From the NCBI GenBank assembly GCA_032250835.1, contig JAVVEA010000015.1, positions 22,758 to 86,757 on the forward strand: a stretch of DNA of 64,000 bases. Direction: 5' to 3'. A model generated the notes under the pieces. The model worked only from the letters and a program-made list of their open reading frames with translations, searched no databases and was not told the DNA's origin. Positions 21,405 to 40,381 of the stretch are shown in pieces. Position 1 is the first letter of the stretch. Each line of letters opens with the position of its first letter. A program made the position numbers and the translations under genes. Origin of the DNA: a bacterium (lineage in GTDB: Bacteria > SAR324 > XYD2-FULL-50-16).

Positions 21405-22820
21405 ATGTGCGGCGTATTTGGTTTTACTGGTCATCCCGAGGCGAAACAGATTCTTCCGGTCATTTTGGCCAGTCTGCAACACCGCGGGCACGACGCAACC
21501 GGGATTGCCGGTTTGGTCGCCGAAGGACCTAACTGTATCGACACCATCAAGGAGATGGGCCGCGCCAGCCGTGCCATCACCACCGCTAAGCTCGATAAGT
21601 TCATTGGCGACAGCTTCATCGCCCATACCCGCTATTCGACCCGTAATTCTTCTTCTTCGCTGCGCGAGATCCATCCCCACTGGGCCCAGAGCATGCAGGG
21701 CCGTTTGGTGATCGTCACCAATGGTGATTTGCTCAACGTTGACGAGCTGCTAGAATACATCGCCAAACGCAAGGTAAAGGTTTACACCAAAAACGACGCC
21801 GAGATCATCGCCGCCTTGATCAACATCCAAATCCGGCTGCGTGGGATGGACATGATGGAGTCCATCACCGAGGTGATGCGCCTGACCAAAGGCGGCTACG
21901 CCGGGGTGGTGATGACCGAAGACGACCCCAATATTTATGCCTTCAGGGACCCCTGGGGCATCCGTCCTTTGCATTACGCGGAGTTTAACTTGGGCGGGCA
22001 GCTTTGCCGTGCCGTCTCCAGCGAAACCTGTTCCTTTGACCTGATCCAGCGATACGACGCCGTCAAATATCCTGACGGAGCCTACCAGACCCGTGAAGTG
22101 GCGCCTGGGGAGATCATATCCTTCTCTAAAGAAGGCACCCCGACCAACCGCTTCCATTCTACCCGTTTCCCTGACCAGTTGGGCTGTGTCTTTGAAGCCA
22201 TCTATTTCTCCCGGCCAGACAGTATCTTACGGGGGGTGACTTACCAGACCCTGCGCGAGCGGATGGGCAAACAATTATTTCAGGAAGCTGGGGTCGAGGC
22301 AGACTTGGTGACCGCCGTGCCCAAAGGGGGCATCCCTTCGGCAGTAGGTTATGCCAAAGCAGCGGGCCTACCCTATTCAGTGGCGATTCTAGAAGAGCCT
22401 TCGACCGGGGGCTTGCGTAGCTTCACCACCAACCCCAAAGACCGCATGGCTTTAGCTAAGATGAAGTATAGCATCTTAAAAGATGTGGTCTTAGATAAAC
22501 GCGTGGTGGTGGTTGATGATTCGATTGTGCGCGGCACCACCGCCAAGCTTTTGGTTAAAAGTCTTTATGAGGCCGGAGCCAAAGAGGTGCATTTGCGGAT
22601 TCCCTGTCCGCCATACAACCATCCCTGCCACTACGGCATCGAAACAAAGGACCCGAAGACCCTGCTCAGCCATGGGCGCAGTAACCAAGAAATCTGCGAG
22701 ATTTTGGGGGCCCATTCGCTTTATTATCTCTCCATTGATGGACTTTACGAGGCCTTAGACATGGAGCGCAGTAAGTTCTGCGACGAATGCCTTTCGGGCC
22801 GCCAGCCTTTCGATATTTAG
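21405..22820 (+). CDS. purF: Amidophosphoribosyltransferase
   Basis: N-terminal MCGVFG (Ntn Cys), LQHRG, HTRYST, CVFEAIYFSRPDS, VDDSIVRGTT, Fe-S cysteines (PCHYGI, FCDEC). Confidence 0.93.
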   Translation: MCGVFGFTGHPEAKQILPVILASLQHRGHDATGIAGLVAEGPNCIDTIKEMGRASRAITTAKLDKFIGDSFIAHTRYSTRNSSSSLREIHPHWAQSMQGRLVIVTNGDLLNVDELLEYIAKRKVKVYTKNDAEIIAALINIQIRLRGMDMMESITEVMRLTKGGYAGVVMTEDDPNIYAFRDPWGIRPLHYAEFNLGGQLCRAVSSETCSFDLIQRYDAVKYPDGAYQTREVAPGEIISFSKEGTPTNRFHSTRFPDQLGCVFEAIYFSRPDSILRGVTYQTLRERMGKQLFQEAGVEADLVTAVPKGGIPSAVGYAKAAGLPYSVAILEEPSTGGLRSFTTNPKDRMALAKMKYSILKDVVLDKRVVVVDDSIVRGTTAKLLVKSLYEAGAKEVHLRIPCPPYNHPCHYGIETKDPKTLLSHGRSNQEICEILGAHSLYYLSIDGLYEALDMERSKFCDECLSGRQPFDI

Positions 22821-23123: not shown

Positions 23124-23525
23124 ATGCTGTTTAACTTCGGCGTAGCCGCGACCTTCCTGGTCGTCATGGCCGCCTTCTTGGGTGTCAACCTCTTGGTTGC
23201 CCGATTGCTGAGCCCCCAAGCGCCCAGTGCCGAGAAGGCCGCACCCTATGACTGTGGTGAAGCTCCGGTGGGTGTGGGTTACCGACAGTTTAACCTGCGC
23301 TTTTATCTAGTCGCTTTGATCTTCGTGATCTTCGATGTGGAGATTGCCTTCATGTATCCGGTGACCGTGGTTTTTAAGGACCTGACCTTTGATGGATACG
23401 GCAGTCTGGCCTTTGTGGAGATCGGTATCTTCGTGTTGATTCTGACCGTTGGGTTTGTCTACGCCTGGAGCGTAGGTGCCCTTGACTGGGTCCGCGAACA
23501 GCTCCAAGAGGAGACTAAATCATGA
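23124..23525 (+). CDS. nuoA: Complex I subunit A
   Basis: [34 protein letters not shown]. Start set at ATG 23124. Confidence 0.93.
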
Positions 23526-24013
23526 ACAACCTACTCAACACCTTCGATAACGACGGGATCGTCTTGACCACTTTGGATCAAGCACTCAACTGGACCCGTG
23601 CCAATAGCTTGTTTTACATGCTCTTTGGTTTGGCTTGTTGCGGTATCGAGATGATGCAGACCGGCGGCCCCCGCGGCGACCTGGACCGGTTCGGCTCGGT
23701 TCCAAGGGCTTCACCGCGCCAATCTGATTTGATGATTGTGGCCGGTACGGTGACCTTAAAGATGGCCAGCCGCGTTAAGGTGCTCTATGATCAAATGCCT
23801 GAACCGAAATATGTCATCTCCATGGGGAGTTGTTCGAATACTGGCGGCTTGTTCCAACCCGGCTACTCGGTGCTTCACGGTGTTGACCGGGTGATTCCGG
23901 TGGATGTTTACCTGCCCGGTTGCCCGCCGCGGCCCGAAGCTTTGACTTCTGCGCTGATCGAGATCCAAAAGCGGATCATGGCCGAGCGTTACCTTCGCAA
24001 GCAAAAGGACTAA
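23522..24013 (+). CDS. nuoB: Complex I subunit B
   Basis: [30 protein letters not shown]. Confidence 0.96.
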
Positions 24014-24022
24014 GGAGTGCCC

Positions 24023-24520
24023 ATGGAGACCCAAAACATCCTCCCGCTACTCCAAAGCAAGACCCAAGGGGCCTTGGAGTTGATCGAAGACGCCTATGGC
24101 GCTACGATCAAGGTCCCGGCCGAGGCCTTGTTGGAGGTTTGCCGCGCCGCTAAAGAATCGCCGGAACTAGCCTTTGACTGTTTGATGAGCCAAACGGGCA
24201 GCCACGTAGGCGAGTCGATCCAACTTTTTTATGTGCTCTTTTCCTACCAGCACAAACATGAGTTGATCTTGACCAGCGAGGTCCCCTTGGGCGGAAGTAT
24301 CGACAGCGTTGCCGGCCTTTGGGCGATTGCCGATTGGCTTGAGCGCGAAACCTTTGACCTATTAGGGGTGAGCTTTAAGGGCCACCCGGACCTGCGCCGG
24401 ATTATGTTGCCTGAAGACTGGGAAGGGCATCCGTTGCTGAAGGACTACCCGACTCCGATGGAGTACAACGGGATTGACAATAGTCCTTCAGAAATCACTC
24501 AAAGCTTTAAAGTGAAATAA
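24023..24520 (+). CDS. nuoC: Complex I subunit C
   Basis: ADWLERETFDLLGVSFKGHPDLRRIMLPEDWEGHPLLKDY. Confidence 0.95.
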   Translation: METQNILPLLQSKTQGALELIEDAYGATIKVPAEALLEVCRAAKESPELAFDCLMSQTGSHVGESIQLFYVLFSYQHKHELILTSEVPLGGSIDSVAGLWAIADWLERETFDLLGVSFKGHPDLRRIMLPEDWEGHPLLKDYPTPMEYNGIDNSPSEITQSFKVK

Positions 24521-24531
24521 GGAGCCACCAG

Positions 24532-25653
24532 ATGGGTAAGTCGCTCAAAACCGAGATCATGACCATCAACATGGGTCCCCAACACCCCTCGACCCATGGT
24601 GTGATTCGGTTTATTATCAAAACGGACGGTGAAATCATCCACGAGTGTATCCCCGATGTGGGCTACCTGCACCGCTCGATCGAGAAAATTGCCGAGGCGG
24701 TAAGCTGGCAAGGCTTTGTGCCTTATACGGACCGGGTGGACTATCTGGCCGCTATGAACGCCAACTGGGCTTATTGTACGGCCGTCGAGAAGATGATTGG
24801 AGCCGAGGTTCCCCGCCGGGCCGAGTTTATCCGCGTGATTGTCGGCGAGCTCAACCGTATCTCTAGCCACCTGATTGCCATCGGTGCCACGGCCATGGAC
24901 TTAGGGGCCTTCACTCCCTTTATCCAACTATTGCGAGAACGCGAGTACATCAACGACTTGCTGGAGATGGCCTGCGGTGCACGTCTGACCTATAACTACA
25001 TCAGCATTGGTGGGGTCAACTGGGATGTACCGCCGAACTGGACCGAGAAGATTGGCGAGTTCTTAGACCATTTTGAGTTGGCGATGGAGCAGATGAACCG
25101 GTTGATTTCTTATAACCGTATCTTCATCAACCGGATGGCCAACTTGGCGACGGTCTCGGCCGAGACCGCCATTGACTATTGCTTCGTGGGGCCGAACCTA
25201 CGTGCTTCGGGCGTCAAATACGATCTGCGTAAAGACATCCCCTACAGTGTATACCCCGAGTTGGATTTTGAAATTCCCGTCGGCGAAGGCCGCGAAGGGG
25301 CCGTAGGCGATTGCTATGACCGCTACTATGTAAGGGCCATGGAAATCCGCGAATCGATCAAAATCTTACGCCAAGCGCTTAAGATGATGCCCGAAGGCGA
25401 ATTTCAAGGCAAAGTAAAAAACAACATCAAACCCGAAGCTGGCGTGGCTTATGTCCGCCACGAAACGCCCCGAGGCGATACGGGATATTTGATTCAAGCA
25501 GATCAAAAAACTTCACCTTACCGATTGAAGATCCGTACCGGAAGCTTCACGGCCATGGCGGCGATACCCGAACTAGCCCAAGGCGTCTTCATTGCCGACT
25601 TGGTGGCCATTATCGGATCTTTGGACGTGGTCGCACCGGAACTGGACCGTTAA
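24532..25653 (+). CDS. nuoD: Complex I subunit D
   Basis: NMGPQHPSTHGVIR, GYLHRSIEK, DRVDY, ELNRISSHL, GSLDVVAPELDR; no NiFe CxxC motifs. Confidence 0.95.
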   Translation: MGKSLKTEIMTINMGPQHPSTHGVIRFIIKTDGEIIHECIPDVGYLHRSIEKIAEAVSWQGFVPYTDRVDYLAAMNANWAYCTAVEKMIGAEVPRRAEFIRVIVGELNRISSHLIAIGATAMDLGAFTPFIQLLREREYINDLLEMACGARLTYNYISIGGVNWDVPPNWTEKIGEFLDHFELAMEQMNRLISYNRIFINRMANLATVSAETAIDYCFVGPNLRASGVKYDLRKDIPYSVYPELDFEIPVGEGREGAVGDCYDRYYVRAMEIRESIKILRQALKMMPEGEFQGKVKNNIKPEAGVAYVRHETPRGDTGYLIQADQKTSPYRLKIRTGSFTAMAAIPELAQGVFIADLVAIIGSLDVVAPELDR

Positions 25654-25665
25654 CCGACGAGTAAA

Positions 25666-26919
25666 ATGCTGATCGAATCCATGACTTCCCTGGGCGTCCC
25701 CGAACTGGTGGCGCAATTGATCTACGCCGGATTGGTGGCCTTTATGTGCATCAACTTCGTGGCGGTATACGCCGGTTTGATCTCGGTGGTGGAACGCCGT
25801 GTGGCCGCTAAGATGCAGTCACGGGTCGGACCTAACCGGGTAGGGCCCAATGGCTGGTTGCAGTGGCTGGCCGACGGCGTCAAATTGATCTTAAAGGAAG
25901 ACCTGATCCCCGCAGGGGCTGACCGCTTGCTGTTTAAAGCGGCCCCGATGATTATGGCAGTGGGTGTGGCGGCGTCCTTTGCGGTGTTGCCTTGGGGACC
26001 GGCTCATGCAATCGCCGCGGACCTGAACGTGGGGATCTTATACCTGATCTCCATTTCGGCATTGGTGGTCATTGGTATCTTGATGGCCGGTTGGGCTTCT
26101 AACAACAAATGGTCGCTTTTAGGCGGCATGCGTGCGGCGGCCCAGATCGTTACCTATGAAGTGCCGGTGGCCATGGGCTTGCTACCAGCGATCATGATTG
26201 CTGGCTCCTTGGCCGTTAGTGACTTGGTCAACGCTCAAGGTTGGGCTCCCTGGGACTGGGTAGCCTTCGATAACCCCTTCGCCATGTTGGGCTTTCTTTT
26301 GTTCCTTACGGGCAGCGTTGCTGAATCAAACCGGACGCCTTTCGACTTGACCGAAGCTGAATCAGAGTTGGTGGCCGGTTACTCGACTGAGTATTCAGGC
26401 TTCCGCTTTGCCATGTTCACGCTTGGTGAATTTGCCAACACTTGGGTGGTTGGGGCTATCTCTGCGGCTATCTTTCTTGGTGGCGGCTTGGTTCCCCCGA
26501 TATTAGCCAATGTCCCCGGTGCTGCGGTAGGCGTGTTCATACTCAAGACCTTGTTTATGGTCTTTGTGTTGATGTGGTTCCGCTGGACTCTGCCGCGCTT
26601 CAGAATTGACCAGATGATGGACTTCTCCTGGAAGTACATGTTACCCCTGGCGCTGTTGGCCTTCTTTGGCCAGTCGATCTACTTCTTGGCTACCTGGGAC
26701 AGCCTAGTGGCTCAGTCGGTAGTCAGCCATCTGATGGTGCTGATCTTTCTGGGCGTCTTCTTTGTCTTCATCAACCGCGTGTTGATCAACTACCGCCACC
26801 AAGCAACGGTGGTGAACAGCTATAAGACCGAAACGGACTATTTGGTGAAGACCGGCAAGATCGTTTTAGCGGCCCCGAAAGAGGCCGCCGCCGATTCATC
26901 AGAGCAGGAGGAAGGATAA
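25666..26919 (+). CDS. nuoH: Complex I subunit H
   Basis: ERRVAAKMQSRVGPNRVG, ADGVKLILKE, AESNRTPFDLTEAESELVAGY, TLPRFRIDQ; C-terminal extension. Confidence 0.95.
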   Translation: MLIESMTSLGVPELVAQLIYAGLVAFMCINFVAVYAGLISVVERRVAAKMQSRVGPNRVGPNGWLQWLADGVKLILKEDLIPAGADRLLFKAAPMIMAVGVAASFAVLPWGPAHAIAADLNVGILYLISISALVVIGILMAGWASNNKWSLLGGMRAAAQIVTYEVPVAMGLLPAIMIAGSLAVSDLVNAQGWAPWDWVAFDNPFAMLGFLLFLTGSVAESNRTPFDLTEAESELVAGYSTEYSGFRFAMFTLGEFANTWVVGAISAAIFLGGGLVPPILANVPGAAVGVFILKTLFMVFVLMWFRWTLPRFRIDQMMDFSWKYMLPLALLAFFGQSIYFLATWDSLVAQSVVSHLMVLIFLGVFFVFINRVLINYRHQATVVNSYKTETDYLVKTGKIVLAAPKEAAADSSEQEEG

Positions 26920-26923
26920 CCCC

Positions 26924-27562
26924 ATGAATATGACCCCCAAAGGCTCTCCGGTGAAGGTTTACTTCAATAACGTGCTCAACGGCATCAGCAGCATGTTTGA
27001 AGGGATGAGCATCACCTTAGCCAGCATGTTCACCCGCGCGCAAACTGTGCAGTATCCCGAGGTGGACCCCCGCTCGGTGGCTTCACAACGCCAAAACTAT
27101 AAAGGTAATTTCCGGGGCATGCCCGAGAATTACCGTGGATTGTTGGACGTTGAGATGGACATCTGCACCGCCTGCTTGATCTGCATGCGGGCCTGCCCGA
27201 TCGACTGCATCGTGATCACCAACGTCAAATGCGACAAGCGGGTGTTCAACGGACGCAGCGGCAAAAAGGCGGTCCAGACCCGCGCGGCTACCCGCTTTGA
27301 TATTGATCTGGGTAAGTGCATGTTCTGTGGACTTTGCACCCTGCCCTGCCCGACCGGTGCGATCTTCCATACCAATGAGTTCGCCTGGAACAAAGAAGAC
27401 TTAGATAGTTTGGTCAAACGTTTCGTAGACCCAGAAACCGGGGCCGCTGCACAGAAGCGGGCCGAAGAAATTGCCCAGGAAGAAATAGCTGCTAAGGCTG
27501 CTAAAGCTGCTGCTAAAGAGGCAGAGCCTAGCAGTGGCGATAGCTCATCCGAGGAGTCTTAA
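26924..27562 (+). CDS. nuoI: Complex I subunit I (2x[4Fe-4S])
   Basis: TVQYPE, CTACLICMRACP, CMFCGLCTLPCP. Confidence 0.93.
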   Translation: MNMTPKGSPVKVYFNNVLNGISSMFEGMSITLASMFTRAQTVQYPEVDPRSVASQRQNYKGNFRGMPENYRGLLDVEMDICTACLICMRACPIDCIVITNVKCDKRVFNGRSGKKAVQTRAATRFDIDLGKCMFCGLCTLPCPTGAIFHTNEFAWNKEDLDSLVKRFVDPETGAAAQKRAEEIAQEEIAAKAAKAAAKEAEPSSGDSSSEES

Positions 27563-27566
27563 CCAG

Positions 27567-28064
27567 ATGGTACAGAATATATTTTTCTTGATTGTGTTGG
27601 TCTTCACCTTGGGCATGGGCCTTTACGTAACGGTGGGGCAAAACTTGATCCGTTCAGCCTTCGCGCTTTTCTTTACGCTCTTTGGCATGGCCGGGTTTTA
27701 TATTTTGCTTGGTGGTGACTTCATTGCCATGGTCCAATTGTTGGTTTACGCAGGCGGCATTGCCGTACTCTTGACCTTCGGGGCTATGTTGACCGCTGAG
27801 GTGGACAGCCCCTTCCAGTCAAACCAGTTATTTAATGGTTTTTGGACCTTTGTTAGTGGGGTGGGCTTCTTCTCGCTGATCTATTACGTCTTGATGGAGA
27901 CTGACTGGCCCTTAAAGGCGGCAAACTACCATGAGCCGACCACCAAAGAGATTGGCCGGTTGTTGCTCCAGCAATACATCTTACCCTTCGAGGTGATCTC
28001 CTTTTTGTTGCTAGTGGCCATGGTGGGCGCGATCTTCTTAGTTCAAAAGGGGGACCGACAATGA
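27567..28064 (+). CDS. nuoJ: Complex I subunit J
   Basis: QLLVYAGGIAVL, YILPFEVISFLLLVAMVGAI. Confidence 0.93.
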   Translation: MVQNIFFLIVLVFTLGMGLYVTVGQNLIRSAFALFFTLFGMAGFYILLGGDFIAMVQLLVYAGGIAVLLTFGAMLTAEVDSPFQSNQLFNGFWTFVSGVGFFSLIYYVLMETDWPLKAANYHEPTTKEIGRLLLQQYILPFEVISFLLLVAMVGAIFLVQKGDRQ

Positions 28065-28372
28065 GCTTAACCCTGATTTTGGCGGCCAGTACCGCCCTCT
28101 TTGCTTTGGGCACGGTGATGTTCATCTCCCGCAAAAACAGCATCGCCATCTTGATGGGTGTTGAATTGCTGATGAACGCAGCGGCCTTGAATTTTATGGG
28201 CTTTTCTTATTACAGTCCGGCCAAGGATCATCCCTTGGACGGTCAGATATTCGCCCTCTTTATCATCTTGATTGCTGCGGCCGAAGCAGTGGTAGCCCTA
28301 GGCATCGCCATTGCGGTCTATAAAGAATACGCGCACGTTCAGGCCGACCAACTGAATCAGTTGGAAGGATAG
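28061..28372 (+). CDS. nuoK: Complex I subunit K
   Basis: LMGVELLMNAAALN, GQIFALF, AAAEAVVALGI. Confidence 0.95.
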   Translation: MSLTLILAASTALFALGTVMFISRKNSIAILMGVELLMNAAALNFMGFSYYSPAKDHPLDGQIFALFIILIAAAEAVVALGIAIAVYKEYAHVQADQLNQLEG

Positions 28373-28406
28373 CCGAAGTTTTGGAACCTAACGGAACGAA
28401 AAAACC

Positions 28407-30494
28407 ATGATCGAATCCCTGATCCCTTTAGTCCCCATCTTGCCGCTCTTCGGAGCCATGGTCATGGGGTTCTTCGGCAAGCGAATCCAGGCCGCCTTCG
28501 GTGAAAATCTGACCGGAATTTTAGGCTGTACTGCACCCGCATTGGCGGCGCTGATCGCTTTCGGCAGTTTCTTTGAGTTGATCAGCCTGCCAGAAGAGGC
28601 CCGAGTGTTTGTCATCAAACTGGGCCAATGGGTCGGCGTGGCCGACTTCCAGGTAGAGTGGGCCTTCCGCTACGATCCGCTTTCGGCCTTAATGTTGATG
28701 ATCATCACCGGCATCGGCACGCTCATCCATATCTATTCGATGGGCTATATGCACGGCGACAAGAGCTTTTGGCGCTTCTTTAGCTACATCAACCTGTTCC
28801 TCGCGGCTATGTTGATGCTGGTCTTAGGCGACAACCTCTTGATCATGTTCTTGGGCTGGGAAGGGGTAGGCCTCTGCTCTTACCTGCTGATCGGCTTTTG
28901 GTTCACCAATTCGGATTACGCCTACGCCGGACGCAAGGCCTTTATTGTCAACCGGATCGGTGACTTAGGCTTTTTGACCGGTATGTTCTTGCTGATTTAC
29001 TTTTCGGCCATGCATTACGACATCGTGACGTTAAGTTACGGAGAATTAGCCAACCGCATGGAGGTGCTCTCTAAGCTTCAGATTTGGGGCCTGCCCATGT
29101 TAGAGGTGACGGCACTGGCCTTCTTCGTTGGGGCCATGGGTAAATCGGCTCAAATCCCCTTGTATGTCTGGCTACCCGACGCGATGGCCGGTCCGACCCC
29201 CGTTTCGGCTTTGATCCACGCGGCCACCATGGTGACCGCAGGCGTCTATATGATTGGCCGCATGTACTTTATGTACAGCATGGCCCCGATAGCGCTGCAA
29301 ACCATTTCTTTTGTCGCCGCCGCTACCTGTTTCCTCTCGGCGACCATCGGCATGGCCCAATATGACATCAAAAAGGTGTTGGCCTATTCGACGGTCTCTC
29401 AGCTCGGTTACATGTTCCTGGCCATGGGCGTCGGCGCTTATAGCGCAGGGATCTTCCACTTACTGACCCACGCCGCCTTTAAAGCTGCTTTGTTCATGGG
29501 CTCCGGGGCGATTATCGTCGCTTTGCACCACGAACAGGACATGCGCAAGATGGGTGGCTTGCTCAAGAAAATGCCCGTCACCGGTTATAGCTTCATTGCC
29601 GCGACGCTGGCGATCATGGGCTTCCCGTTGACTTCGGGTTTCTTCAGTAAAGACGAAATTCTTGAGAAGGCCTTCGAGCATGCCCCGGCCCTTTGGGTCT
29701 TGGCCTTTACCGCCGCAGGCATCACCAGCTTTTATATGTGGCGCTTGGTCTTCATGACATTCTTCGGGAAGTACCGGGGTGACGAGCATACCTGGGATCA
29801 TTGCGTTGAGCAGCCCAAACGCACTACCGTACCGGTAGCTATCTTGGCGGTGGCGGCTTTGACCTTAGGCTTCTTGAACGTGCCCGACTTCTTGGGTGGA
29901 AGCTACAGCTTCAGTAACTACTTGTCGCCGGTGGTCAAAGATATGGATGGCCACGCGCTCGAAGCTGGAGCGGTGCTTCATGCCGCTGCGGAACATGCCG
30001 CTGAGGCCGAAGAACACGGCGACCTTTGGATCGAATGGGCCTTGATGATTGGCTCGGTTCTTTGGACCTTCATTACCGCCGGATTGGCCTACTACTACTA
30101 CATGAAGGCTCCCCAGCAGCGCGAACGACTGATGGCCAAGGCCGGTCCCAAACGAATTTTTCAGGTTTTACACGACAAATATTATGTCGACGAGTTCTAC
30201 GACTGGGCTTTGATCCGGCCGTTGATCCGGTTGTTCCGTTTCTTAGCCAACTTCGACAAATACGTAGTCGATGGAGCGGTCAACCTAGCAGCCTTTTTAA
30301 GCAAAGGCTTGGCGCAGATAGCCGGCTTCCTCGACAAAGGCATTGTTGACGGTATTGTCAACGAATTGGCTTGGTTTTCCCAAGCAACCGGCAAAGGCTT
30401 TAGCTTGATGCAAAGCGGGCGAATCCAAGGTTTGGTCGCCAGTACGCTGGTACTTTTCACTGCGGTATTCGCATTGTTGATCTTTGTTCTTTAA
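28407..30494 (+). CDS. nuoL: Complex I subunit L
   Basis: GWEGVGLCSYLLIGFW, KAFIVNRIGD, KSAQIPLYVWLPDAMAGPTPVSALIHAATMVTAG. Confidence 0.96.
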   Translation: MIESLIPLVPILPLFGAMVMGFFGKRIQAAFGENLTGILGCTAPALAALIAFGSFFELISLPEEARVFVIKLGQWVGVADFQVEWAFRYDPLSALMLMIITGIGTLIHIYSMGYMHGDKSFWRFFSYINLFLAAMLMLVLGDNLLIMFLGWEGVGLCSYLLIGFWFTNSDYAYAGRKAFIVNRIGDLGFLTGMFLLIYFSAMHYDIVTLSYGELANRMEVLSKLQIWGLPMLEVTALAFFVGAMGKSAQIPLYVWLPDAMAGPTPVSALIHAATMVTAGVYMIGRMYFMYSMAPIALQTISFVAAATCFLSATIGMAQYDIKKVLAYSTVSQLGYMFLAMGVGAYSAGIFHLLTHAAFKAALFMGSGAIIVALHHEQDMRKMGGLLKKMPVTGYSFIAATLAIMGFPLTSGFFSKDEILEKAFEHAPALWVLAFTAAGITSFYMWRLVFMTFFGKYRGDEHTWDHCVEQPKRTTVPVAILAVAALTLGFLNVPDFLGGSYSFSNYLSPVVKDMDGHALEAGAVLHAAAEHAAEAEEHGDLWIEWALMIGSVLWTFITAGLAYYYYMKAPQQRERLMAKAGPKRIFQVLHDKYYVDEFYDWALIRPLIRLFRFLANFDKYVVDGAVNLAAFLSKGLAQIAGFLDKGIVDGIVNELAWFSQATGKGFSLMQSGRIQGLVASTLVLFTAVFALLIFVL

Positions 30495-30530
30495 CCAACC
30501 GACCGAAGGTCTTTACACTCTCTTGAGGTT

Positions 30531-32039
30531 ATGATGAGTCACATTCTGTCATGGGTTGTTTTCCTCCCCTTGATCGGGATTCCACTTCTGTTCCTGCTAC
30601 CCAAGGATAAAGGCAAGTGGATTGCCTTGGGGGTGACCATCGCCGATTTTCTGATCGGTATGCCCGTGATCATGGGCTACAACAAGACGATGGTCGGCGT
30701 CAGTAATCCTAGCGAGATGCAGTTCGTTGAACGGTTTTCCTGGATTCCTAGCTTGGGCGTCGAGTATTCGATCGGCGTGGATGGTCTGTCCATTACCATG
30801 ATCCTCTTGACCTTGTTGATCGGGATCTTGGGCGTCTTGGCTTCTTGGAACGTTAGCCAATTCGAGCGTGGATACTTCTCGATGTATCTACTCTTGCAGA
30901 CCGCCATGTTAGGCGTCTTCGTGGCGCTGGATTTGGTGCTCTTCTTTATCTTCTGGGAAGTGATGCTCTTCCCTATGTATTTCTTGATCGGTGTCTGGGG
31001 CGGTCCGCGCCGGATTTACGCGGCCATCAAGTTCTTCTTGTATACCCTCTTCGGTGGTGTGGGTATGCTGTTGGCCTTTATCGCCATGTGGTACTACGCT
31101 CCGGGGGAACGGACCTGGGATATGGTTGAACTGCTCCAGCGGGTTGCCGCAGGCGGTCAGTTTGACGGACCTGACATCTTCGGGGTGGCCTTCACCAAGA
31201 TGGTCTTCGTGGTGCTCTTCATTGGCTTTGCGATCAAAGTGCCGATCTTTCCCTTCCACACTTGGTTGCCTGACGCGCACGTCGAGGCCCCCACGGCAAT
31301 CTCGGTGATCTTAGCCGGTGTGTTGCTGAAGATGGGGACTTACGGTTTCTTACGGATCAACTTTACCTTGTTCCCCGAAGCCTTCGACTGGTTCCGTGAC
31401 TTCTTGGTTGCCTTAGCGGTGATCAACATCGTCTACGGTGCGCTCTGCGCCCTGGCGCAGTCCGACTTAAAGAAGATGGTCGCCTACAGCTCAATCAGCC
31501 ACATGGGCTTTATTTTGCTCGGTATTGCTGCCGCCACGCCCCAGGGCATCAACGGCGCTATGTTGCAAATGTTCAACCATGGTACCATCACCGCCATGCT
31601 CTTCTTGTTGGTCGGTGTGGTTTATGACCGTGCCCACCACCGCCAGATCGACGGGTTCGGCGGCTTAGCCGCTAGGACGCCGGTCTTTGCCGCCTTGACC
31701 AGCGCGGCCTTTATGGCTGCGGTTGGTTTACCTGGCTTCTCCGGCTTTATCAGTGAGTTGCTGATTCTTGCAGGTAGTTTTAAAGTTTACCAGGTGCCCA
31801 CCATCATTGCCGGTTTGGGCATCATCTTCGGTGCTGGATACATGCTCTGGGCATACCAGCGCGTGTTCTTCGGCAAGTTGAACGAGAAATATGCCGATAT
31901 GCCCGACGTAAATCGGGTGGAGGTGATTTCCCTGTTGCCCCTGTTGGTGATCGTGGTCTATCTCGGGATTTTCCCCAACAACCTGATCGTCTTCTTCGAG
32001 GCTTCGATGAACCACATCAGCGAACTGTTGCTGCACTAA
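30531..32039 (+). CDS. nuoM: Complex I subunit M
   Basis: FFIFWEVMLFPMYFLIGVWG, KVPIFPFHTWLPDAHVEAPT, AYSSISHMG. Confidence 0.96.
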   Translation: MMSHILSWVVFLPLIGIPLLFLLPKDKGKWIALGVTIADFLIGMPVIMGYNKTMVGVSNPSEMQFVERFSWIPSLGVEYSIGVDGLSITMILLTLLIGILGVLASWNVSQFERGYFSMYLLLQTAMLGVFVALDLVLFFIFWEVMLFPMYFLIGVWGGPRRIYAAIKFFLYTLFGGVGMLLAFIAMWYYAPGERTWDMVELLQRVAAGGQFDGPDIFGVAFTKMVFVVLFIGFAIKVPIFPFHTWLPDAHVEAPTAISVILAGVLLKMGTYGFLRINFTLFPEAFDWFRDFLVALAVINIVYGALCALAQSDLKKMVAYSSISHMGFILLGIAAATPQGINGAMLQMFNHGTITAMLFLLVGVVYDRAHHRQIDGFGGLAARTPVFAALTSAAFMAAVGLPGFSGFISELLILAGSFKVYQVPTIIAGLGIIFGAGYMLWAYQRVFFGKLNEKYADMPDVNRVEVISLLPLLVIVVYLGIFPNNLIVFFEASMNHISELLLH

Positions 32040-32072
32040 GAAGGCTCAAAGAATTGAAGCAAAGGTTATAGG

Positions 32073-33500
32073 ATGTTCAATACGCTACCCTTTCTCGCAT
32101 TTTTGCCGGCCCATATTCTGCTCGCTTTGGCTATGCTCTTCTTCTTTGCGGGGAAGGCGGTGCCGGGCTTGAGGAAAATGCCGGTAACCCCGCTTTTTCT
32201 GTTGGTCTTGGCCGGGGCCTTCGCCTTTGAGGCGATGGGTGAAGGGTCCCACGAGATCTTCTTTGGGATGATTGTGGTCGATAGCTTCTCTAGGCTCTAC
32301 GACCAGATATATTACCTCGTCACGGCCATTGTTGTCTTGATGTTGCACTATTCAGACGAAGTGGACCGCGACAATGACTGGGAAAACTTCGGTCTTTTGT
32401 CTTGCTTGTTGCTGGGCATGATGTTCATGACCAACTCTAGCCACCTCTTGATGGCCGTGATCGGCATCGAAATGGTTTCTTTGCCTAGCTATTTGCTGGT
32501 GGCGATGAATCGCAAGGTGGCTGCGGCTAAGGAAGCGAGCTTGAAGTATGTGCTCTTCGGCAGTTTCGCCACGGGCATCATGCTCTACGGTATGTCTTTG
32601 CTCTTTGGTCTGACCGGGTCTTTGGCCTTCGCCGATATTTGGAGTGGTTTGGACGGCTCTGTGGTGGGCTCACCGGTCTACTATTTGGCGATTGGTATGA
32701 CCTTAGCGGGTATGGCCTTTAAAGTCGCTGCCGTGCCCTTCCACTTCTGGTGCCCTGATGCTTACCAAGCGGCTCCGACCCCGGTGACTGCGTTTTTGAG
32801 CGTGGCCCCAAAGGTCGCTGGTTTGGCTTTGATGATGCGCTTTTTTGCCGAGCATATGGCGGTACAGGGCGAGAGCTTGACGCTGATGTTGTCGATCATC
32901 TCCATGGCAACCATGACCCTGGGCAACTTTGCCGCTCTAAAACAGACCGACATCAAACGGCTGTTGGCTTATTCGTCTATCTCTCACGCCGGGTTCTTGT
33001 TAATGGGGGTCACGGTGCTGAACGCTGACGGGCGTCAGGCGGTGTTCTTTTATATCCCCATCTATCTTTTGATGAACTTAGGTGCCTTTATGGTGGTGAT
33101 TTTGCTCTCAAAGGAGCAGAATTTTCAAATCAGTTCCTTTAAAGGTGCCATTAAAGCCAACCCATTATTGGTCGTGGCTTTTGCGGTTTGCAGCTTCAGT
33201 TTAGCGGGTATTCCGCCCTTCGCTGGATTTGTGGGTAAGTTTTATCTCTTTAAAGCCAGCTTAGAAAAAGGTTTATACCTGCTCTTGCTGGTGGCGGGGA
33301 TCAACTCGGTGGTGGCACTCTTTTATTATGTGAACGTCCTTAAGGTGATGATCATTGATAAAGAAGCCCAGCCGATGGTCCCACTGACCCAACGAATCCC
33401 TCTGGTTTTTGTGACCAGTTGCGCTGTGCCGCTCGTCTTTTTAGGCATCTATTGGGTGCCTTTATTACACTGGGCCGAAAAAGTTCGACTATTCCAGTAA
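32073..33500 (+). CDS. nuoN: Complex I subunit N
   Basis: EASLKYVLFG, FKVAAVPFHFWCPDAYQAAPTP, KRLLAYSSISHAG, SLAGIPPFAGF. Confidence 0.96.
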   Translation: MFNTLPFLAFLPAHILLALAMLFFFAGKAVPGLRKMPVTPLFLLVLAGAFAFEAMGEGSHEIFFGMIVVDSFSRLYDQIYYLVTAIVVLMLHYSDEVDRDNDWENFGLLSCLLLGMMFMTNSSHLLMAVIGIEMVSLPSYLLVAMNRKVAAAKEASLKYVLFGSFATGIMLYGMSLLFGLTGSLAFADIWSGLDGSVVGSPVYYLAIGMTLAGMAFKVAAVPFHFWCPDAYQAAPTPVTAFLSVAPKVAGLALMMRFFAEHMAVQGESLTLMLSIISMATMTLGNFAALKQTDIKRLLAYSSISHAGFLLMGVTVLNADGRQAVFFYIPIYLLMNLGAFMVVILLSKEQNFQISSFKGAIKANPLLVVAFAVCSFSLAGIPPFAGFVGKFYLFKASLEKGLYLLLLVAGINSVVALFYYVNVLKVMIIDKEAQPMVPLTQRIPLVFVTSCAVPLVFLGIYWVPLLHWAEKVRLFQ

Positions 33501-33540
33501 ATAAGCCAACCAAAAGGGTCGGTTCGGATAATAATTGGGT

Positions 33541-33569
33541 TTGACGGAGCGGGGTCGGACCCATACAAT
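33541..33569 (+). promoter_or_regulatory. Putative sigma70 promoter for the oxidoreductase gene
   Basis: TTGACG-N17-TACAAT, 78 bp upstream of ATG 33647. Confidence 0.6.
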
Positions 33570-33646
33570 CACAGACGGCGCAATGGTATCCATCAAAGGC
33601 CGATGGACCCTCCCGCGAACGCATTGAATTATCTTTCAGGTACTCC

Positions 33647-36600
33647 ATGAGCAAGCCCAAATATCCCGGTATCCGAACCACCACGAACGGCAACACTCTG
33701 GTTGCCTACTACACCGAAGCGCGCATTGCCGAGGCGGGGATTTTTTACCCCATCACACCCTCGACTGAAATGGGCGAAAACTTTCAGCTTTCCTTTGCCC
33801 AAGGGGAATTGAACGTCTTTGGTCAGGTCAAAATTGCCTTGGAAACCGAAGGTGAGCACGCGGCCCAGTCGGGCGCGATTGCCGCTTCGACGACTGGCAA
33901 ACGGGTGGTCAACTTTACCTCCGGTCAAGGTGTGGTCTATGGCGCTGAGCCTTACTACCATGCCCCTAGTAAATTTAGCACCATGGTGCTCCAGATCGCG
34001 GCGCGCGCACTGACCAAGTCAGCGTTGAACGTCCACTGTGGACACGACGACGTCTATTCGGTCTTAGATACCGGCTGGACCATGTTGTTCGCTAAAGATG
34101 CCCAGCAGGCCTCGGATCAATCGATGATCCTGCGCCGGGTCAATGAGCTGAGCCTCAACCCCGGCATCAACTGCCAAGACGGCTTCTTGACCAGCCACTT
34201 GGAGCGTACCTTCTTGATCCCCGAAGCCGAACTGATCCGCGAGTATCTGGGCCGTCCTGAGGACATGATCGACTGCCCCAATGAGTCGCAGCGTCAGTTA
34301 TTCGGACCCAAGCGCCGCCGTGTTCCCATTGGCATGGACCTGAAGAGCCCCGTTTTGATGGGCCCCGTCCAAAACCAGGAACACTACATGGGGGGCGTGA
34401 TCGCTCGGCGCAACCACTTCGTTGAGCCGATCTTAGGCTTTTTAGAGCAAGCCTACGAAGAATTTGGCAAACTGACGGGCCGCAACTATGGTTTGATCAG
34501 CCAGTACAACTGCGAAAAGGCGGATACCGTCTTCGTATCGCTAGGCTCCTCGGCTGAAAACATGGAAGCCGCCAGCGACTACCTTAAAGGTAAAGGCCAG
34601 GAATCCTTTGGGGTGATCCACCTCAACGTGATCCGCCCCTTCCCCGAGGCCGCAGTGGTCAACGCCCTGCGCGGTAAGAAGAATGTGGTTATCTTAGAGC
34701 GCATGGACGACCAGACCGCTTCAGATAACCCGATGGCCCGCGACATCCGCACCGCTTTATCTAAGGCTCTGACCAATTCAAAGACCAAGGCCTTTGACTA
34801 CCTGCCTTCGATCACCGATGCCGAAATGCCCCGCCTCTTCAGCGGCGTCTATGGTTTAGGCAGCCGCGACTTCCGCCCCGAAGGCGTGTTGGGTGCCTTT
34901 GACTTTGTGACCGGCAAGTCGGCCCGCCAGGATGGCAAGAAAGCCTCTGATGGCGTCAGCTTCTTCTACGTTGGGGTGGATCACCCCTACTCGGTTGAAT
35001 CCCAAGACAAGCCTAGCCTCCTGCCGGACGGCTCTATCGCCATCCGCTTCCACTCCATTGGTGGTTGGGGTGCGATCACGACCGGTAAAAACTTGGGCGA
35101 AATCATCGGTAGTATCTCTAACTACGTAGCCGAACGCGATGGGTTGTTTGAAGAGAATGGCTCCCCTAAAGAGGTCTTCCATATCTCGGCGAACCCTAAG
35201 TATGGCTCAGAAAAAAAGGGTGCCCCGACCAACTATTTCTTGGTCGCCGCTCCTGAGCGGATTCGGGTTAACTGTGATTTGCGCCACGTAGACGTGGTTC
35301 TTTGCTGCGACCCCAAGGCCTTCACCCACACCAACCCGCTCAACGGGCTCAACCCCGGCGGCGCGTTGATTATCGAGACCGACGAAACCACTTCAGCAGG
35401 GCTCTGGGGCCGCATCCCCAAGCAGTACCGCCAGTGGATCATCGACAACCAAATCCGCATCTACGGCTTGGCCGGTTTTGCGGTGGCTCGCAACGCCACG
35501 GAGCGTGAAGACCTCCAGTACCGTATGCAGGGCAACAGCTTCTTGGGGGCCTTCTTTAAGGTCTCTCCGATGCTCAAGGATTACAACATCCCCGAAGATG
35601 GTTTCTTGGAAATCGTCGAGGCCCAGTACAACAAAAAGTTTGGACGCTTCGGCGACGCCGTGGTGTCTTCAAACATGACCGTAATGACCGAAGGCTTTAA
35701 GGGCGTTTGGCAAGCCGAATACGGCCAAGTGGACGATGTCGATGGCTCGGCCATGCGCGGTCCCCGCTTGCTTCCGGTTAGCGGTAAGGCTCGTTTCGAC
35801 GAACATGACGAAAAAGGCAAGCAAACCGCTAAGGTTCCTTACCACTCAGTTGAAGCCTACAATGCTGAGTTTAAGGCGGGCTACGGTTACGACCAGCCCT
35901 CTACGGTGTTGGCTTCGACCGGTGTGATGGCTGCGGCTTCTGCGGCGACTAACTCAAAGTATGTAAGCCGCCGCCGGGTGCCGATCTTTTACCCGGAAAA
36001 CTGTACCCAGTGTATGGCCTGCATCACCTCCTGTCCCGATACGGCTATGCCGAACGCGGCCCAGGACATCAGCACTGTCTTGAAGGCGGCTATCTCTAAT
36101 TACGTTAGCGATGCCGCTGCCGTTAAGGTTCTGCTAGACGCAGTCCCCAGCTTGGATCAGAGCCTACGCGAAGCGATGATGTCGCAGATTCAAGAGAACA
36201 AAAACGAGGCCAAGAGCTTTACCGTTCTGGTTTCAGAAGCCCTTAAGACGGTAGACGTCTCTGAAGCGGCTAAGCAAGAGTTGTTGGGCATCATCGAAAA
36301 GGTCCCCATGGCTTACGCCAAGAGCCGACCGATCTTCGAGTTGCCCGAAAAGAAAGAAAAAGGCGCAGGCGGCCTCTTCACCATCATGATCAGTGACCTC
36401 TGCAAGGGTTGCGGTGAGTGTGTGGTGGAATGTGGCGACCACAAAGCCCTTTCAATGATCGAAGAAACCGAAGAGATCAACGGTGAGCACGCCACGGGTA
36501 TTGCCTTCTTAGACCTGCTGCCGGACACTTCTTCTAAGTTCTTGGGTAAGTTTGACGCGGCCAACATGGTGGAAACCTCTAAAGGGGTGCTGCACAACCA

Positions 36601-38221
36601 CTTGATGATCCGCACCAACTATGACGCACTGGTTTCTGGTGACGGTGCCTGTGCTGGTTGTGGTGAAAAAACCGTCCTTCGGGCTACGGCGACGATCACC
36701 GAAGCCTTCATGCGGCCTTTGTACCACGAGAAGGCCAACCGCCTTGAAGGCAAAGCTAAGAGCTTGGTTTCCGGTGGGGTTAAGATGCTGGCGGACCTCA
36801 AAGCCAAAGACGAAGAGGCCTACAAATGGTGGCGTGCAAGCTTGCTGCACCTAGTTATGGGCTTCGGCGGCGAGAACGAAAAAGACAGCTTGGTCCAGAT
36901 GGAAGGCTTTGGTGGCGATGACGCCGAATTGATCAACGCCTTGGATCTGGTCTTGCGCCAAGACGCCTTCAACCACCGCGATTTGCGCGCTGTGGACGGT
37001 CGTTATGCCAACGGTATGAGTGTGATGATGATGACCAGTTCGACTGGTTGTAACTCGGTTTATGGCTCAACCCACCCGAACAACCCGCACCAGTACCCCT
37101 GGATGAACAGCCTGTTCCAAGACAGCCCCACGCTGGCTTGGGCCTTTGGCGAAACCATGATCATGGACCACTCGAAACGCTCCGTATTACCTGAGCGGAT
37201 CGCCGATGCCTTGATCGAAGGTAAGGGCTTGACCCAGACCCAGTACTTCCGTTTCACCCACTTTACCGATGCTGAGATGACCGATCAGGAAATCTTGGAA
37301 CTGCCCAAGGTTTGGGCCATCGGTGGCGACGGCGCTATGGGGGATATTGGTTTCCAGAACCTCTCTAAAGTGGTGCTGCAAAACCGGCCCAACGTGAAGT
37401 GTCTGATGCTCGATACCCAAGTCTACTCGAACACCGGCGGTCAGAACTCTGACTCTTCGGTAATGCCCGGTGGTTTCGACATGAACCAGTACGGTAAGGC
37501 TACCGAAGGCAAGATGATCGAGCGTAAGGAAGTGACCAGTATCCTGATGGCGGGCCATGGTAGCCCCTTTGTGGCACAGGTAAGTATGGCCAACTCGGCC
37601 AATCTCCTCAAGGCCGTCTTGGACGCGGTAACCTACCGTGGCACGGCTTATATCCAAAGCTTCACCACCTGCCAGCCGGAGCATGGCGTGGCCGACGATG
37701 TGTCGACCGTACAAGCTCAGTTGGTGCGTGACTCACGGGCTATGCCGGAACTGGTCTTTAATCCTTCAGAAGGGGAAACCTACTACGAGGCACTTTCTCT
37801 TAAGGGCAACCCGAACGCTAAAAACGACTGGTTGATCAAAAAAGACCCCGAAGGCAATCCTTACAACTACACCGTAGCCCACTGGGCGACCACCGAAGCC
37901 CGCTTCAGAAAGCACTTCTTTAAGGTCGAAAAGGGTGGCGAGGCGCAGTTGGAGCATTTGGATTCAGCCTTAGCACGCCTCAGCCAGGACGACGTGGTTT
38001 ACCGCCGGTTCCTAATTCCCGGCCACCGTGCCTTTGTGCCGGAAAAGGGGGTGTATATTTTGGTTGAAAAGAAGGGCAAGATGGTCCCCATGGGCATCAG
38101 CCGTCAATTGGTCTTATTCTGCGTCGAGCGGCGTAAGAACTGGCGGATGTTGCAGTCTATGGCAGGCGTCCCCAACGAAGATTACAAAGCCCAACGCGAG
38201 CATTTAGCTTCGTTGAAGTAA
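33647..38221 (+). CDS. Fused pyruvate/2-oxoacid:ferredoxin (flavodoxin) oxidoreductase, long form (1524 aa)
   Basis: YPITPS (alpha), FHSIGGWGAITTGK and YGSEKKG (gamma), CTQCMACITSCP and CKGCGECVVECG (delta Fe-S), GACAGCGE and GGDGAMGDIG...DTQVYSNTGGQ (beta, TPP). Confidence 0.92.
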   Translation: MSKPKYPGIRTTTNGNTLVAYYTEARIAEAGIFYPITPSTEMGENFQLSFAQGELNVFGQVKIALETEGEHAAQSGAIAASTTGKRVVNFTSGQGVVYGAEPYYHAPSKFSTMVLQIAARALTKSALNVHCGHDDVYSVLDTGWTMLFAKDAQQASDQSMILRRVNELSLNPGINCQDGFLTSHLERTFLIPEAELIREYLGRPEDMIDCPNESQRQLFGPKRRRVPIGMDLKSPVLMGPVQNQEHYMGGVIARRNHFVEPILGFLEQAYEEFGKLTGRNYGLISQYNCEKADTVFVSLGSSAENMEAASDYLKGKGQESFGVIHLNVIRPFPEAAVVNALRGKKNVVILERMDDQTASDNPMARDIRTALSKALTNSKTKAFDYLPSITDAEMPRLFSGVYGLGSRDFRPEGVLGAFDFVTGKSARQDGKKASDGVSFFYVGVDHPYSVESQDKPSLLPDGSIAIRFHSIGGWGAITTGKNLGEIIGSISNYVAERDGLFEENGSPKEVFHISANPKYGSEKKGAPTNYFLVAAPERIRVNCDLRHVDVVLCCDPKAFTHTNPLNGLNPGGALIIETDETTSAGLWGRIPKQYRQWIIDNQIRIYGLAGFAVARNATEREDLQYRMQGNSFLGAFFKVSPMLKDYNIPEDGFLEIVEAQYNKKFGRFGDAVVSSNMTVMTEGFKGVWQAEYGQVDDVDGSAMRGPRLLPVSGKARFDEHDEKGKQTAKVPYHSVEAYNAEFKAGYGYDQPSTVLASTGVMAAASAATNSKYVSRRRVPIFYPENCTQCMACITSCPDTAMPNAAQDISTVLKAAISNYVSDAAAVKVLLDAVPSLDQSLREAMMSQIQENKNEAKSFTVLVSEALKTVDVSEAAKQELLGIIEKVPMAYAKSRPIFELPEKKEKGAGGLFTIMISDLCKGCGECVVECGDHKALSMIEETEEINGEHATGIAFLDLLPDTSSKFLGKFDAANMVETSKGVLHNHLMIRTNYDALVSGDGACAGCGEKTVLRATATITEAFMRPLYHEKANRLEGKAKSLVSGGVKMLADLKAKDEEAYKWWRASLLHLVMGFGGENEKDSLVQMEGFGGDDAELINALDLVLRQDAFNHRDLRAVDGRYANGMSVMMMTSSTGCNSVYGSTHPNNPHQYPWMNSLFQDSPTLAWAFGETMIMDHSKRSVLPERIADALIEGKGLTQTQYFRFTHFTDAEMTDQEILELPKVWAIGGDGAMGDIGFQNLSKVVLQNRPNVKCLMLDTQVYSNTGGQNSDSSVMPGGFDMNQYGKATEGKMIERKEVTSILMAGHGSPFVAQVSMANSANLLKAVLDAVTYRGTAYIQSFTTCQPEHGVADDVSTVQAQLVRDSRAMPELVFNPSEGETYYEALSLKGNPNAKNDWLIKKDPEGNPYNYTVAHWATTEARFRKHFFKVEKGGEAQLEHLDSALARLSQDDVVYRRFLIPGHRAFVPEKGVYILVEKKGKMVPMGISRQLVLFCVERRKNWRMLQSMAGVPNEDYKAQREHLASLK

Positions 38222-38237: not shown

Positions 38238-38270
38238 AAAAAAGGGTCGCTTCGGCGGCCCTTTTTTTTT
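38238..38270 (+). terminator. Rho-independent terminator
   Basis: AAAAAAGGGTCGC-TTCG-GCGGCCCTTTTTTTTT. Confidence 0.9.
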
Positions 38271-39102: not shown

Positions 39103-39456
<354 letters not shown>

Positions 39457-39494
39457 TTATGGGTTATAGGCCCCGAAGGGCCCGGTTCCTTTTC

Positions 39495-40232
39495 TTAGAA
39501 GGAGTAGTCAACAGACATCCAGAATTCATTGTGCAGACGATCGGTTTTGTCGGTCTGCTGAACTACTTGGGTTTTGTTGAAGCTGGCGCTGGCCTGATCG
39601 TTGATGGCTTTCGACATCGACAGGGTGATGATGCCACTGGTTTCAGGAGCGATACCGGCGCCACCTAACCACTCGTGGTTGTAGGTACCACCACCGTAGG
39701 TGATGCCTACGTCATAGCCCAAAGCCGCGGTGCTGTAGCCAATTTCGATCCAGTTTAGCATGATCGACTCGTCTGCTTTTTCGCCAGCACCCTTGGTGGA
39801 GGCATCAGGCAGAACTAAATACAAGGTAGCCGAGATCGCGTCCATTCCGTAGCCAACAAAGACTTCGTTCTGGGTGCCGATGTTCTTGCCGTCAGCATCG
39901 GTGCCGAAGCTTTTCCAGTCATAAGAGTACATGGTCAAACCGAAGCTTAAACCAGATTCCATCTCATAGATAGCGTAGTAGTCGGTTTCGTGAGCACCCG
40001 AAGCAACCGCGTTCCAGTTACCCAAGGTCAAACCGGGCATAGCCGCGAAGGTGAAGTCCAAACCACCGCTGAACGAGGTGTTGTTGCCGTTTTGGGGCAC
40101 ACCACGCCAGATGTAGTTAGACAAGACGCTAGCGTTGCCAGCGACGGAAACCGATTCTTCGGCGTAAAGGGTAGAGCCAAAGCCCATCAGGGCCAAACCG
40201 ATTACCATGCCTTTAATTGCTTTGCTGAACAT
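39495..40232 (-). CDS. TorF/Gcw_chp-like outer-membrane porin
   Basis: Signal peptide, SNYIWRGVPQ..SFSGGLDF, terminal aromatic VDYSF; lies between amtB and P-II. Confidence 0.8.
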   Translation of the reverse strand: MFSKAIKGMVIGLALMGFGSTLYAEESVSVAGNASVLSNYIWRGVPQNGNNTSFSGGLDFTFAAMPGLTLGNWNAVASGAHETDYYAIYEMESGLSFGLTMYSYDWKSFGTDADGKNIGTQNEVFVGYGMDAISATLYLVLPDASTKGAGEKADESIMLNWIEIGYSTAALGYDVGITYGGGTYNHEWLGGAGIAPETSGIITLSMSKAINDQASASFNKTQVVQQTDKTDRLHNEFWMSVDYSF

Positions 40233-40381
40233 GTGATATTCTCCTAAGAGTTTGTTATTAACGGGTTCCCCCCTGGGTTCGTGCGCCCAGGGGGTATGCC
40301 TGAACCATATGGTACCAAGCGCCCCGATGCGACCTTTGGGAACCCTATGTTCCCTAAGTTTTATAAAGCCTAAAGGCTCGA

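Follow-up and report, generated by a model that had tools for sequence, protein, structure and literature searches.

The window analysed here, 64,000 nucleotides of a SAR324 bacterium (contig JAVVEA010000015.1), contains a complex I operon without nuoE, nuoF and nuoG, directly followed by the gene for a large 2-oxoacid:ferredoxin oxidoreductase, probably a pyruvate:ferredoxin oxidoreductase (PFOR). The eleven genes nuoA-B-C-D-H-I-J-K-L-M-N are contiguous on the plus strand according to the open reading frames (ORFs) and family profiles, nuoD and nuoH are separated by 12 bp, and the PFOR-type gene, which encodes 1524 residues on the same strand, begins 146 bp past nuoN. This layout agrees with the first-pass annotation. 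The genome studied is referred to as G000 and is 97% complete; C-numbers are its contigs, and the other G-numbers are compared genomes.

The locus is read here as a headless complex I, which is fed by a small soluble ferredoxin that the neighbouring PFOR supplies from pyruvate; this reading is held with little more than even confidence. In this mechanism, the PFOR would oxidise pyruvate and reduce a small soluble [4Fe-4S] ferredoxin, the reduced ferredoxin would pass its electrons to the 11-subunit complex I without NADH module, and the complex would reduce menaquinone while pumping protons. The positions of the features are given in Table 1.

Table 1. Positions of the genes and sites at the nuo-PFOR locus, numbered from the first nucleotide of the window.
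Feature	Position	Strand	Basis or remark
purF-like gene, upstream, outside the system, synteny control	21405-22820	+	TIGR01134 312 bits, cut-off 350
nuoA	23124-23525	+	PF00507, E 4e-32; ATG at 23124
nuoB (N2 cluster subunit)	23522-24013	+	TIGR01957, NF005012 above cut-off
nuoC	24017-24520	+	PF00329
nuoD, short 373-aa type	24532-25653	+	without NiFe cysteine pairs
nuoH	25666-26919	+	PF00146; NF004741 above cut-off
nuoI with two [4Fe-4S] motifs, a long and basic loop between the clusters and an extended C-terminal tail	26924-27562	+	
nuoJ	27534-28064	+	PF00499
nuoK	28061-28372	+	PF00420
nuoL	28407-30494	+	TIGR01974 above cut-off
nuoM	30531-32039	+	TIGR01972 above cut-off
nuoN	32073-33500	+	TIGR01770 above cut-off
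sigma70-like promoter candidate for PFOR, TTGACG-17-TACAAT	33541-33569	+	pattern scan
long-type one-chain 2-oxoacid (probably pyruvate):ferredoxin oxidoreductase, 1524 aa	33647-38221	+	family profiles
intrinsic terminator-like hairpin with T run, 3' of PFOR	38238-38270	+	fold -18.4 kcal/mol

Complex I without an NADH module

A tblastn search of the genome returned a single copy each of nuoA, B, C, D, H, I, J and K, and further L/M/N-like genes are present solely on C40, where their layout presumably corresponds to that of an Mrp antiporter. The nuo operon is the sole complex I of the genome. Its antiporter-like subunits are one nuoL, one nuoM and one nuoN with no additional copy, whereas 2M-type complex I has an extra antiporter-like subunit. 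As in other 11-subunit complex I-like enzymes, the same 11 subunits are present, the N-module is missing, and NuoD has no NiFe cysteine pair. NuoD keeps the motifs GPQHPSTHG, YTDRVDYL and, at the C-terminus, DVVAPELDR, of which the retained His and Tyr are assumed to be quinone-site residues; its top match in the Protein Data Bank (PDB) is 6HUM_H, and the lack of the NiFe cysteine pairs indicates that it does not belong to a group 4 hydrogenase.

The absence of nuoE, nuoF and nuoG from the operon was followed through the whole genome, where none of canonical type was found: no protein of the 97% complete genome lies above the cut-off of TIGR01973, TIGR01959 or TIGR01958. The look-alikes are accounted for by three NuoF-domain matches, two of which are RnfC, while the third is a 592-aa protein on C13. 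The latter belongs to a cluster of 177, 592 and 1013 aa. A GltD-type flavin domain is part of the 1013-aa subunit, whose top matches are 9BOV, 9N5U (NfnA) and 8OH5, and the E- and F-like subunits fall narrowly below looser models (130 of 141 for NF005722 and 369 of 389 for NF010120). Judged from these similarities, the C13 cluster is of the NfnABC/Stn type and not a canonical nuoE/F/G set. A different arrangement was seen in G017, where a four-subunit porCDAB-like set runs into nuoE/F/G-like genes (L119:4566-10727). Similar porCDAB-like matches occur in G004, G009, G012, G015, G016 and G018, and the layout belongs to the two genera in which the long PFOR is separated from nuo.

Candidate ferredoxin site and carriers

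In the Fd-NDH-1L structure, ferredoxin touches K86, K89 and K91 of NdhI and K315 and K321 of NdhH (PMC7021789; this and the other papers are cited for selected passages). The three NdhI lysines map to the loop that joins the two cluster motifs of NuoI, and this loop has a net charge of +5 in the present genome. Its net charge is 0 to +6 in all 20 counted operons without nuoEFG and −2 to −4 in all five with nuoEFG, in a count that consists mostly of rows from kin and omits G020. The loop is equally basic where the PFOR is absent or located elsewhere. On the NuoD side, K300 aligns with NdhH K321, and K294 matches NdhH K315 upon extending the alignment by one residue. Across 18 headless NuoD sequences, the residue in these columns is K in 13 and either K or R in all 18. 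In addition, NuoD lacks a 25-residue segment that is present in five of five sequences of the nuoEFG type and missing from all seven headless ones aligned. From these features, the Q module looks suited to an acidic partner.

Acidic candidates for this partner are encoded in the genome, namely three single-cluster ferredoxins with net charges of −13 to −14; a fourth ferredoxin is less acidic, and another is nif-linked. Small single-cluster ferredoxin genes stand in two tandem pairs, at C22:174841-175278 and C11:293620-294145. A search of the genome for flavodoxin found none. Genes of the menaquinone pathway (MqnA/D) and for a cbb3 oxidase (ccoN) are present. The PFOR is probably one of several enzymes sharing a ferredoxin pool, beside two KorAB, two Rnf, an Nfn-type enzyme and a nitrogenase, and not a fixed subunit of the complex.

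At the level of sequence, and with G020 as a counter-example, the putative site resembles that of cyanobacterial NDH-1, a headless and ferredoxin-fed complex, in that the lysines of NdhH and the basic loop of NdhI are matched here. In contrast to NDH-1, the candidate carriers are single-cluster [4Fe-4S] ferredoxins and not plant-type ones, menaquinone is the predicted quinone, and the segment that is deleted in NuoD is kept in NdhH. None of NdhL/M/N/O/S/V lies in the nuo operon; a genome-wide search for them was not made.

The long-type PFOR and its place behind nuoN

The PFOR shows the usual one-chain domain order (domains I, II, III, V and VI by Pfam) with insertions, and it keeps the thiamine pyrophosphate motif and the 12 cysteines for three [4Fe-4S] clusters, which are conserved without exception in the 71 long homologues compared. 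It shares with the NifJ-type enzymes 6CIN and 1B0P the domain order, the 12 cysteines, the threonine of YPITP and the catalytic Glu, Arg and Asn, which are T37, E70, R120 and N1262 here. It differs from them in being 23-30% identical, about 330 residues longer and without the EKR motif, and in residues 129-132, where Ile-Phe-Gly-Asp near the substrate site is replaced by Val-His-Cys-Gly. The EKR motif is also missing from the split PFOR of Magnetococcus marinus (PMC13768988), which may be a relative of the long class. The abstract and sections 2, 3 and 5 of that review describe no such long one-chain form.

The unusual size reported in the first-pass annotation, where the protein was called giant and fused, is real; however, it is not special to this locus, because the insertions are common to a widespread subfamily. 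Members of this class, about 60% identical, are spread over Acidobacteriota, Planctomycetota, Bacteroidota and other groups, with more than 3000 matches among 8000 scored, and split forms are present among its homologues. The insertions cover residues of about 802-882 and 1018-1126, with a C-terminal extension at 1454-1521. In an AlphaFold2 model of residues 455-1518 (mean predicted local distance difference test score 81.9, predicted template modelling score 0.81), both main insertions are helical. No solved structure of the subfamily is among the PDB matches, and a search of the ESM Atlas returned only clusters of the ferredoxin-domain kind. The insertions were considered as an adaptation for docking on complex I, which was ruled out because homologues without a nuo neighbour have insertions of equal length and similar charge.

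A paralogous long PFOR, 36% identical, is found at C17:7167-19421 of G000 in the order rnfB-PFOR-rnfCDGEA-korAB. Five SAR324 genomes from two families (G000, G010, G006, G026 and G033) have a long PFOR of this kind placed between rnfB and rnfC, with korAB following in three of the five, and PFOR-like matches lie directly ahead of rnfC in G031, G036 and G039. That the Rnf set of the paralogue lacks RnfB was also considered and ruled out, as rnfB was found upstream.

Gene order was compared over 20 genomes, consisting of G000, 18 members of its family and one member of a sister family (G022, 86% complete). Of these, 18 were assessable; G005 has no nuo match, and the contig of G011 stops 430 bp past nuoN. 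The adjacency of nuoN and PFOR is conserved in part, with a PFOR directly after nuoN in nine of the 18 and not in the rest. In eight of the nine (G000, G002, G003, G006, G007, G010, G013 and G022) it is the long PFOR, with gaps of 37-546 bp. In G001, it is a canonical NifJ (23% identical, 1688 on TIGR02176) located 126 bp behind nuoN, and in G008 a NifJ lies 7.4 kb downstream of nuoN with three unrelated ORFs between. Both G001 and G008 have lost the link to purF and changed the PFOR class, while a PFOR still follows nuoN; this retention is not explained by synteny of the purF kind, although the class change in the two genomes may be a single event. An adjacency kept through a change of class supports a functional link and, at the same time, argues against a dedicated docking interface. 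G001 also has an unrelated 145-aa ORF between nuoM and nuoN (L136:5734-6171).

The gap between nuoN and PFOR contains no terminator-like site on the plus strand, and a strong hairpin with a T run follows PFOR, as had been described; this hairpin was seen by folding, whereas the pattern scan of terminators omitted it. The sigma70-like site in the gap is also present, as the top-scoring of 12 promoter-like sites in 19 kb, but the chance expectation is 10.4 ± 3.3 and the site alone is not significant. The motif is kept in relatives: TTGAC-17/18-TAnAnT occurs in the gap in this genome and in five of the seven relatives in which the long PFOR follows nuoN. Intrinsic terminators lie between nuoN and PFOR in G010, G006 and G013. 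These sites suggest that the candidate promoter probably drives transcription of PFOR and that the nuo operon and PFOR are probably neighbours on separate transcripts.

Alternative explanations, known systems and neighbouring genes

The first-pass annotation had proposed that electrons pass from pyruvate to quinone either through ferredoxin or through a PFOR docked on the complex. The first form, a ferredoxin-linked complex with PFOR as its partner, is supported because canonical nuoEFG are missing, the site residues are basic, acidic ferredoxins are encoded and the adjacency persists through the class change. The second form, in which the long PFOR would dock on NuoI/NuoD as a substitute N-module and its distal cluster would donate electrons to N6a, is considered very improbable. 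The gene position and the helical insertion of about 80 residues in the ferredoxin domain, whose net charge of −4 could face the basic NuoI loop, are in its favour, as is the similar embedding of the paralogue in rnf operons. It is disfavoured because NifJ without insertions occupies the same place in G001, unlinked homologues carry comparable insertions, the PFOR promoter motif is conserved, and three relatives have terminators ahead of PFOR. The basicity of the NuoI loop in genomes where the PFOR is absent or distant also speaks against docking, as does the use of small carriers with weak specificity by characterised PFORs in the sections consulted of PMC13768988.

Several observations weigh against the favoured reading of a ferredoxin-fed complex with PFOR as the supplier. 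The PFOR scores 346.8 bits on TIGR02176, and because this is far under the cut-off of 911, pyruvate is a presumed substrate. The genome also has a full aceE-aceF-lpd pyruvate dehydrogenase as well as the second long PFOR; the former is possibly a recent gain, because an E2 subunit was not found in four of four relatives searched. At the ferredoxin site, the NuoI loop of G020 is about −1 by eye, though no NuoF-like gene was found in G020, and K occupies the K300 position in two of five nuoEFG-type NuoD (by eye). The compared genomes are kin and not independent, and in eight of them, belonging to two genera, the complex is retained although nuoN is not followed by a PFOR. Furthermore, a NuoF-like gene of about 600 aa is present in 17 of 18 family relatives, and for this reason the NfnABC-type protein has to be taken seriously as a possible electron donor to the complex. 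Finally, purF and nuoA are adjacent in eight genomes, so the nuoN-PFOR synteny, which is only a little more conserved, may largely reflect plain inheritance.

The last two points form the core of an alternative that is considered unlikely, in which the adjacency is inherited order without a special link and the complex is fed by the general ferredoxin pool or by the NfnABC-type NuoE/F/G-like module. The promoter motif of PFOR and the terminators in the three relatives agree with it, as does the separation of nuo and PFOR in eight genomes, one of which (G015) has the long PFOR directly after purF. However, it does not account for the PFOR behind nuoN in G001 and G008, for the loss from NuoD of the segment that all five nuoEFG-type sequences keep, or for G022, which has the nuo-PFOR string and in which no NuoF-like gene was found.

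The rarity of the link outside the clade bears on the same alternative and weighs further against the favoured reading. Among the best 80 of 594 long-PFOR loci, nuo genes were found in three; after removal of four loci classed as family members, the link remained in one of 76 (61 of the surveyed loci had at least 2 kb upstream). Among the best 80 of 556 metagenome nuoN loci, 63 of which had at least 600 bp downstream, a 2-oxoacid oxidoreductase gene was found in one. A wide link between the long PFOR and nuo is ruled out by these counts. The single outside case is a Fibrobacteria genome with the same nuo-PFOR order, whose headless operon is unrelated (33-52% identity) and whose PFOR is not sister to the SAR324 PFORs (FastTree, 40 of the 76 sequences). 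Among 121 Fibrobacterota genomes, G041 alone has a long-type PFOR. Of three genomes picked out of the 121 for NifJ and nuoN matches within 20 kb, one has the PFOR two genes ahead of nuoA in the same orientation, one has it in divergent orientation at 4 kb, and one has it 8 kb off. A PFOR within 8 kb of a headless nuo operon in four Fibrobacterota genomes, in differing layouts, argues against inherited order.

The reverse, carboxylating use mentioned in the first-pass annotation gains support from ATP-citrate-lyase (ACL)-like genes in the family. With the same parts and carrier, the complex would run mainly backwards, where the proton motive force drives electrons from menaquinol to ferredoxin and the PFOR acts as pyruvate synthase in a sulfur oxidiser using the reductive tricarboxylic acid (rTCA) cycle; this is regarded as rather doubtful. 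ACL-like pairs are present in this genome and in 13 of 18 family relatives, KorA is found in 14 of 14, no RuBisCO was found in the five genomes searched, and dsrAB and ccoN are encoded. The ACL-like gene is absent from the three genomes in which NifJ replaces the long PFOR, and the PFOR of M. marinus, the possible relative, makes pyruvate in vitro (PMC12337175). G003 and G007, both 97% complete, have an ACL-like gene, the nuo-linked PFOR as sole PFOR match, and no match to RnfC, PntB or a second NuoD-like protein of the group 4 hydrogenase type. Because two relatives combine ACL-like genes, a nuo-linked PFOR alone and no Rnf, a reverse, CO2-fixing use of the complex and PFOR is plausible. A tentative extension, given slightly more credence, is that sulfur-oxidising Lambdaproteobacteria run a standard three-pump headless complex I backwards to reduce the ferredoxin of the cell, with the long-type PFOR as pyruvate synthase of the rTCA cycle; the two would form a reversible pyruvate:menaquinone module replacing Rnf.

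The energetics are less favourable to this direction. Only three pumping subunits are present, and by our own arithmetic about 0.36 V is available from 4 H+ per two electrons if about 180 mV is assumed, which is marginal for the step from menaquinol to the pyruvate couple. The potential of menaquinol is about −74 mV. That of the pyruvate couple is −515 to −540 mV (PMC13768988). This genome moreover has alternatives, namely two Rnf sets, the second PFOR inside an rnf-kor cluster and the pyruvate dehydrogenase. The ACL assignment rests on similarity: the pair of 438 and 908 aa at C42:59005-63078 is ACL/citryl-CoA-synthetase-like, and the C-terminal 600 residues of its large subunit have no Pfam or PDB match. 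In G022, which has the string together with a heme-copper oxidase, MqnA/D and a small ferredoxin, no E2 subunit, KorA or ACL-like gene was found (86% complete); forward use fits this genome.

The idea that connects a headless complex I, PFOR and ferredoxin is already known, and the locus is of an ordinary kind, with circumstantial support for the ferredoxin link that is better than average. Headless complex I was described as common and without a designated partner in the survey of Moparthi and Hagerhall in 2011 (PMC3144371). PFOR with ferredoxin was proposed as donor in Desulfitobacterium hafniense from co-expression (PMC11238625), and the path from PFOR through ferredoxin to complex I was proposed for Synechocystis (PMC8887894). 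Whereas the D. hafniense proposal is based on expression patterns, the PFOR gene is adjacent here, even through a class change. As in Campylobacter jejuni, whose complex I is fed by flavodoxin, a 2-oxoacid oxidoreductase would act through a small carrier; however, enzymes of that type keep NuoG and substitutes of NuoE/F, whereas all three are absent here. Passages on that system also hypothesise reverse use in rTCA autotrophs (PMC4453560, 10.1101/717884), and PMC6315080 covers rTCA clusters with Rnf. A literature search that reached few subscription papers found no report of the nuo-PFOR adjacency in the SAR324 lineage.

In most phyla, the question of which partner gives electrons to the 11-subunit complex I is still open. 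The SAR324 lineage supplies a candidate set of PFOR, three acidic ferredoxins and defined lysines, and natural controls in the form of the PFOR class swap at one site, genomes without a NuoF-like gene and autotroph-like genomes without Rnf. Reverse operation, if true, would explain the source of low-potential ferredoxin in some rTCA sulfur oxidisers.

Beyond PFOR, three opposite-strand genes lie at 39103-41725 of the window (minus strand), with the same arrangement in G003; from their sequence, we take them to be glnK, a porin-like gene and amtB. Upstream of the operon, positions 13845-15647 (plus strand) encode a 600-aa protein with a signal-like start, pentapeptide repeats and repeated Cys motifs, of which shorter look-alikes are found at C42:49387-50573. 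Elsewhere in the genome, a nifH-led nitrogenase cluster is located at C38:183453-190825, a dsrC-dsrAB cluster at C4:29386-38501, and the aceE-aceF-lpd genes at C4:17421-23203, beside cas-like genes and a repeat array.

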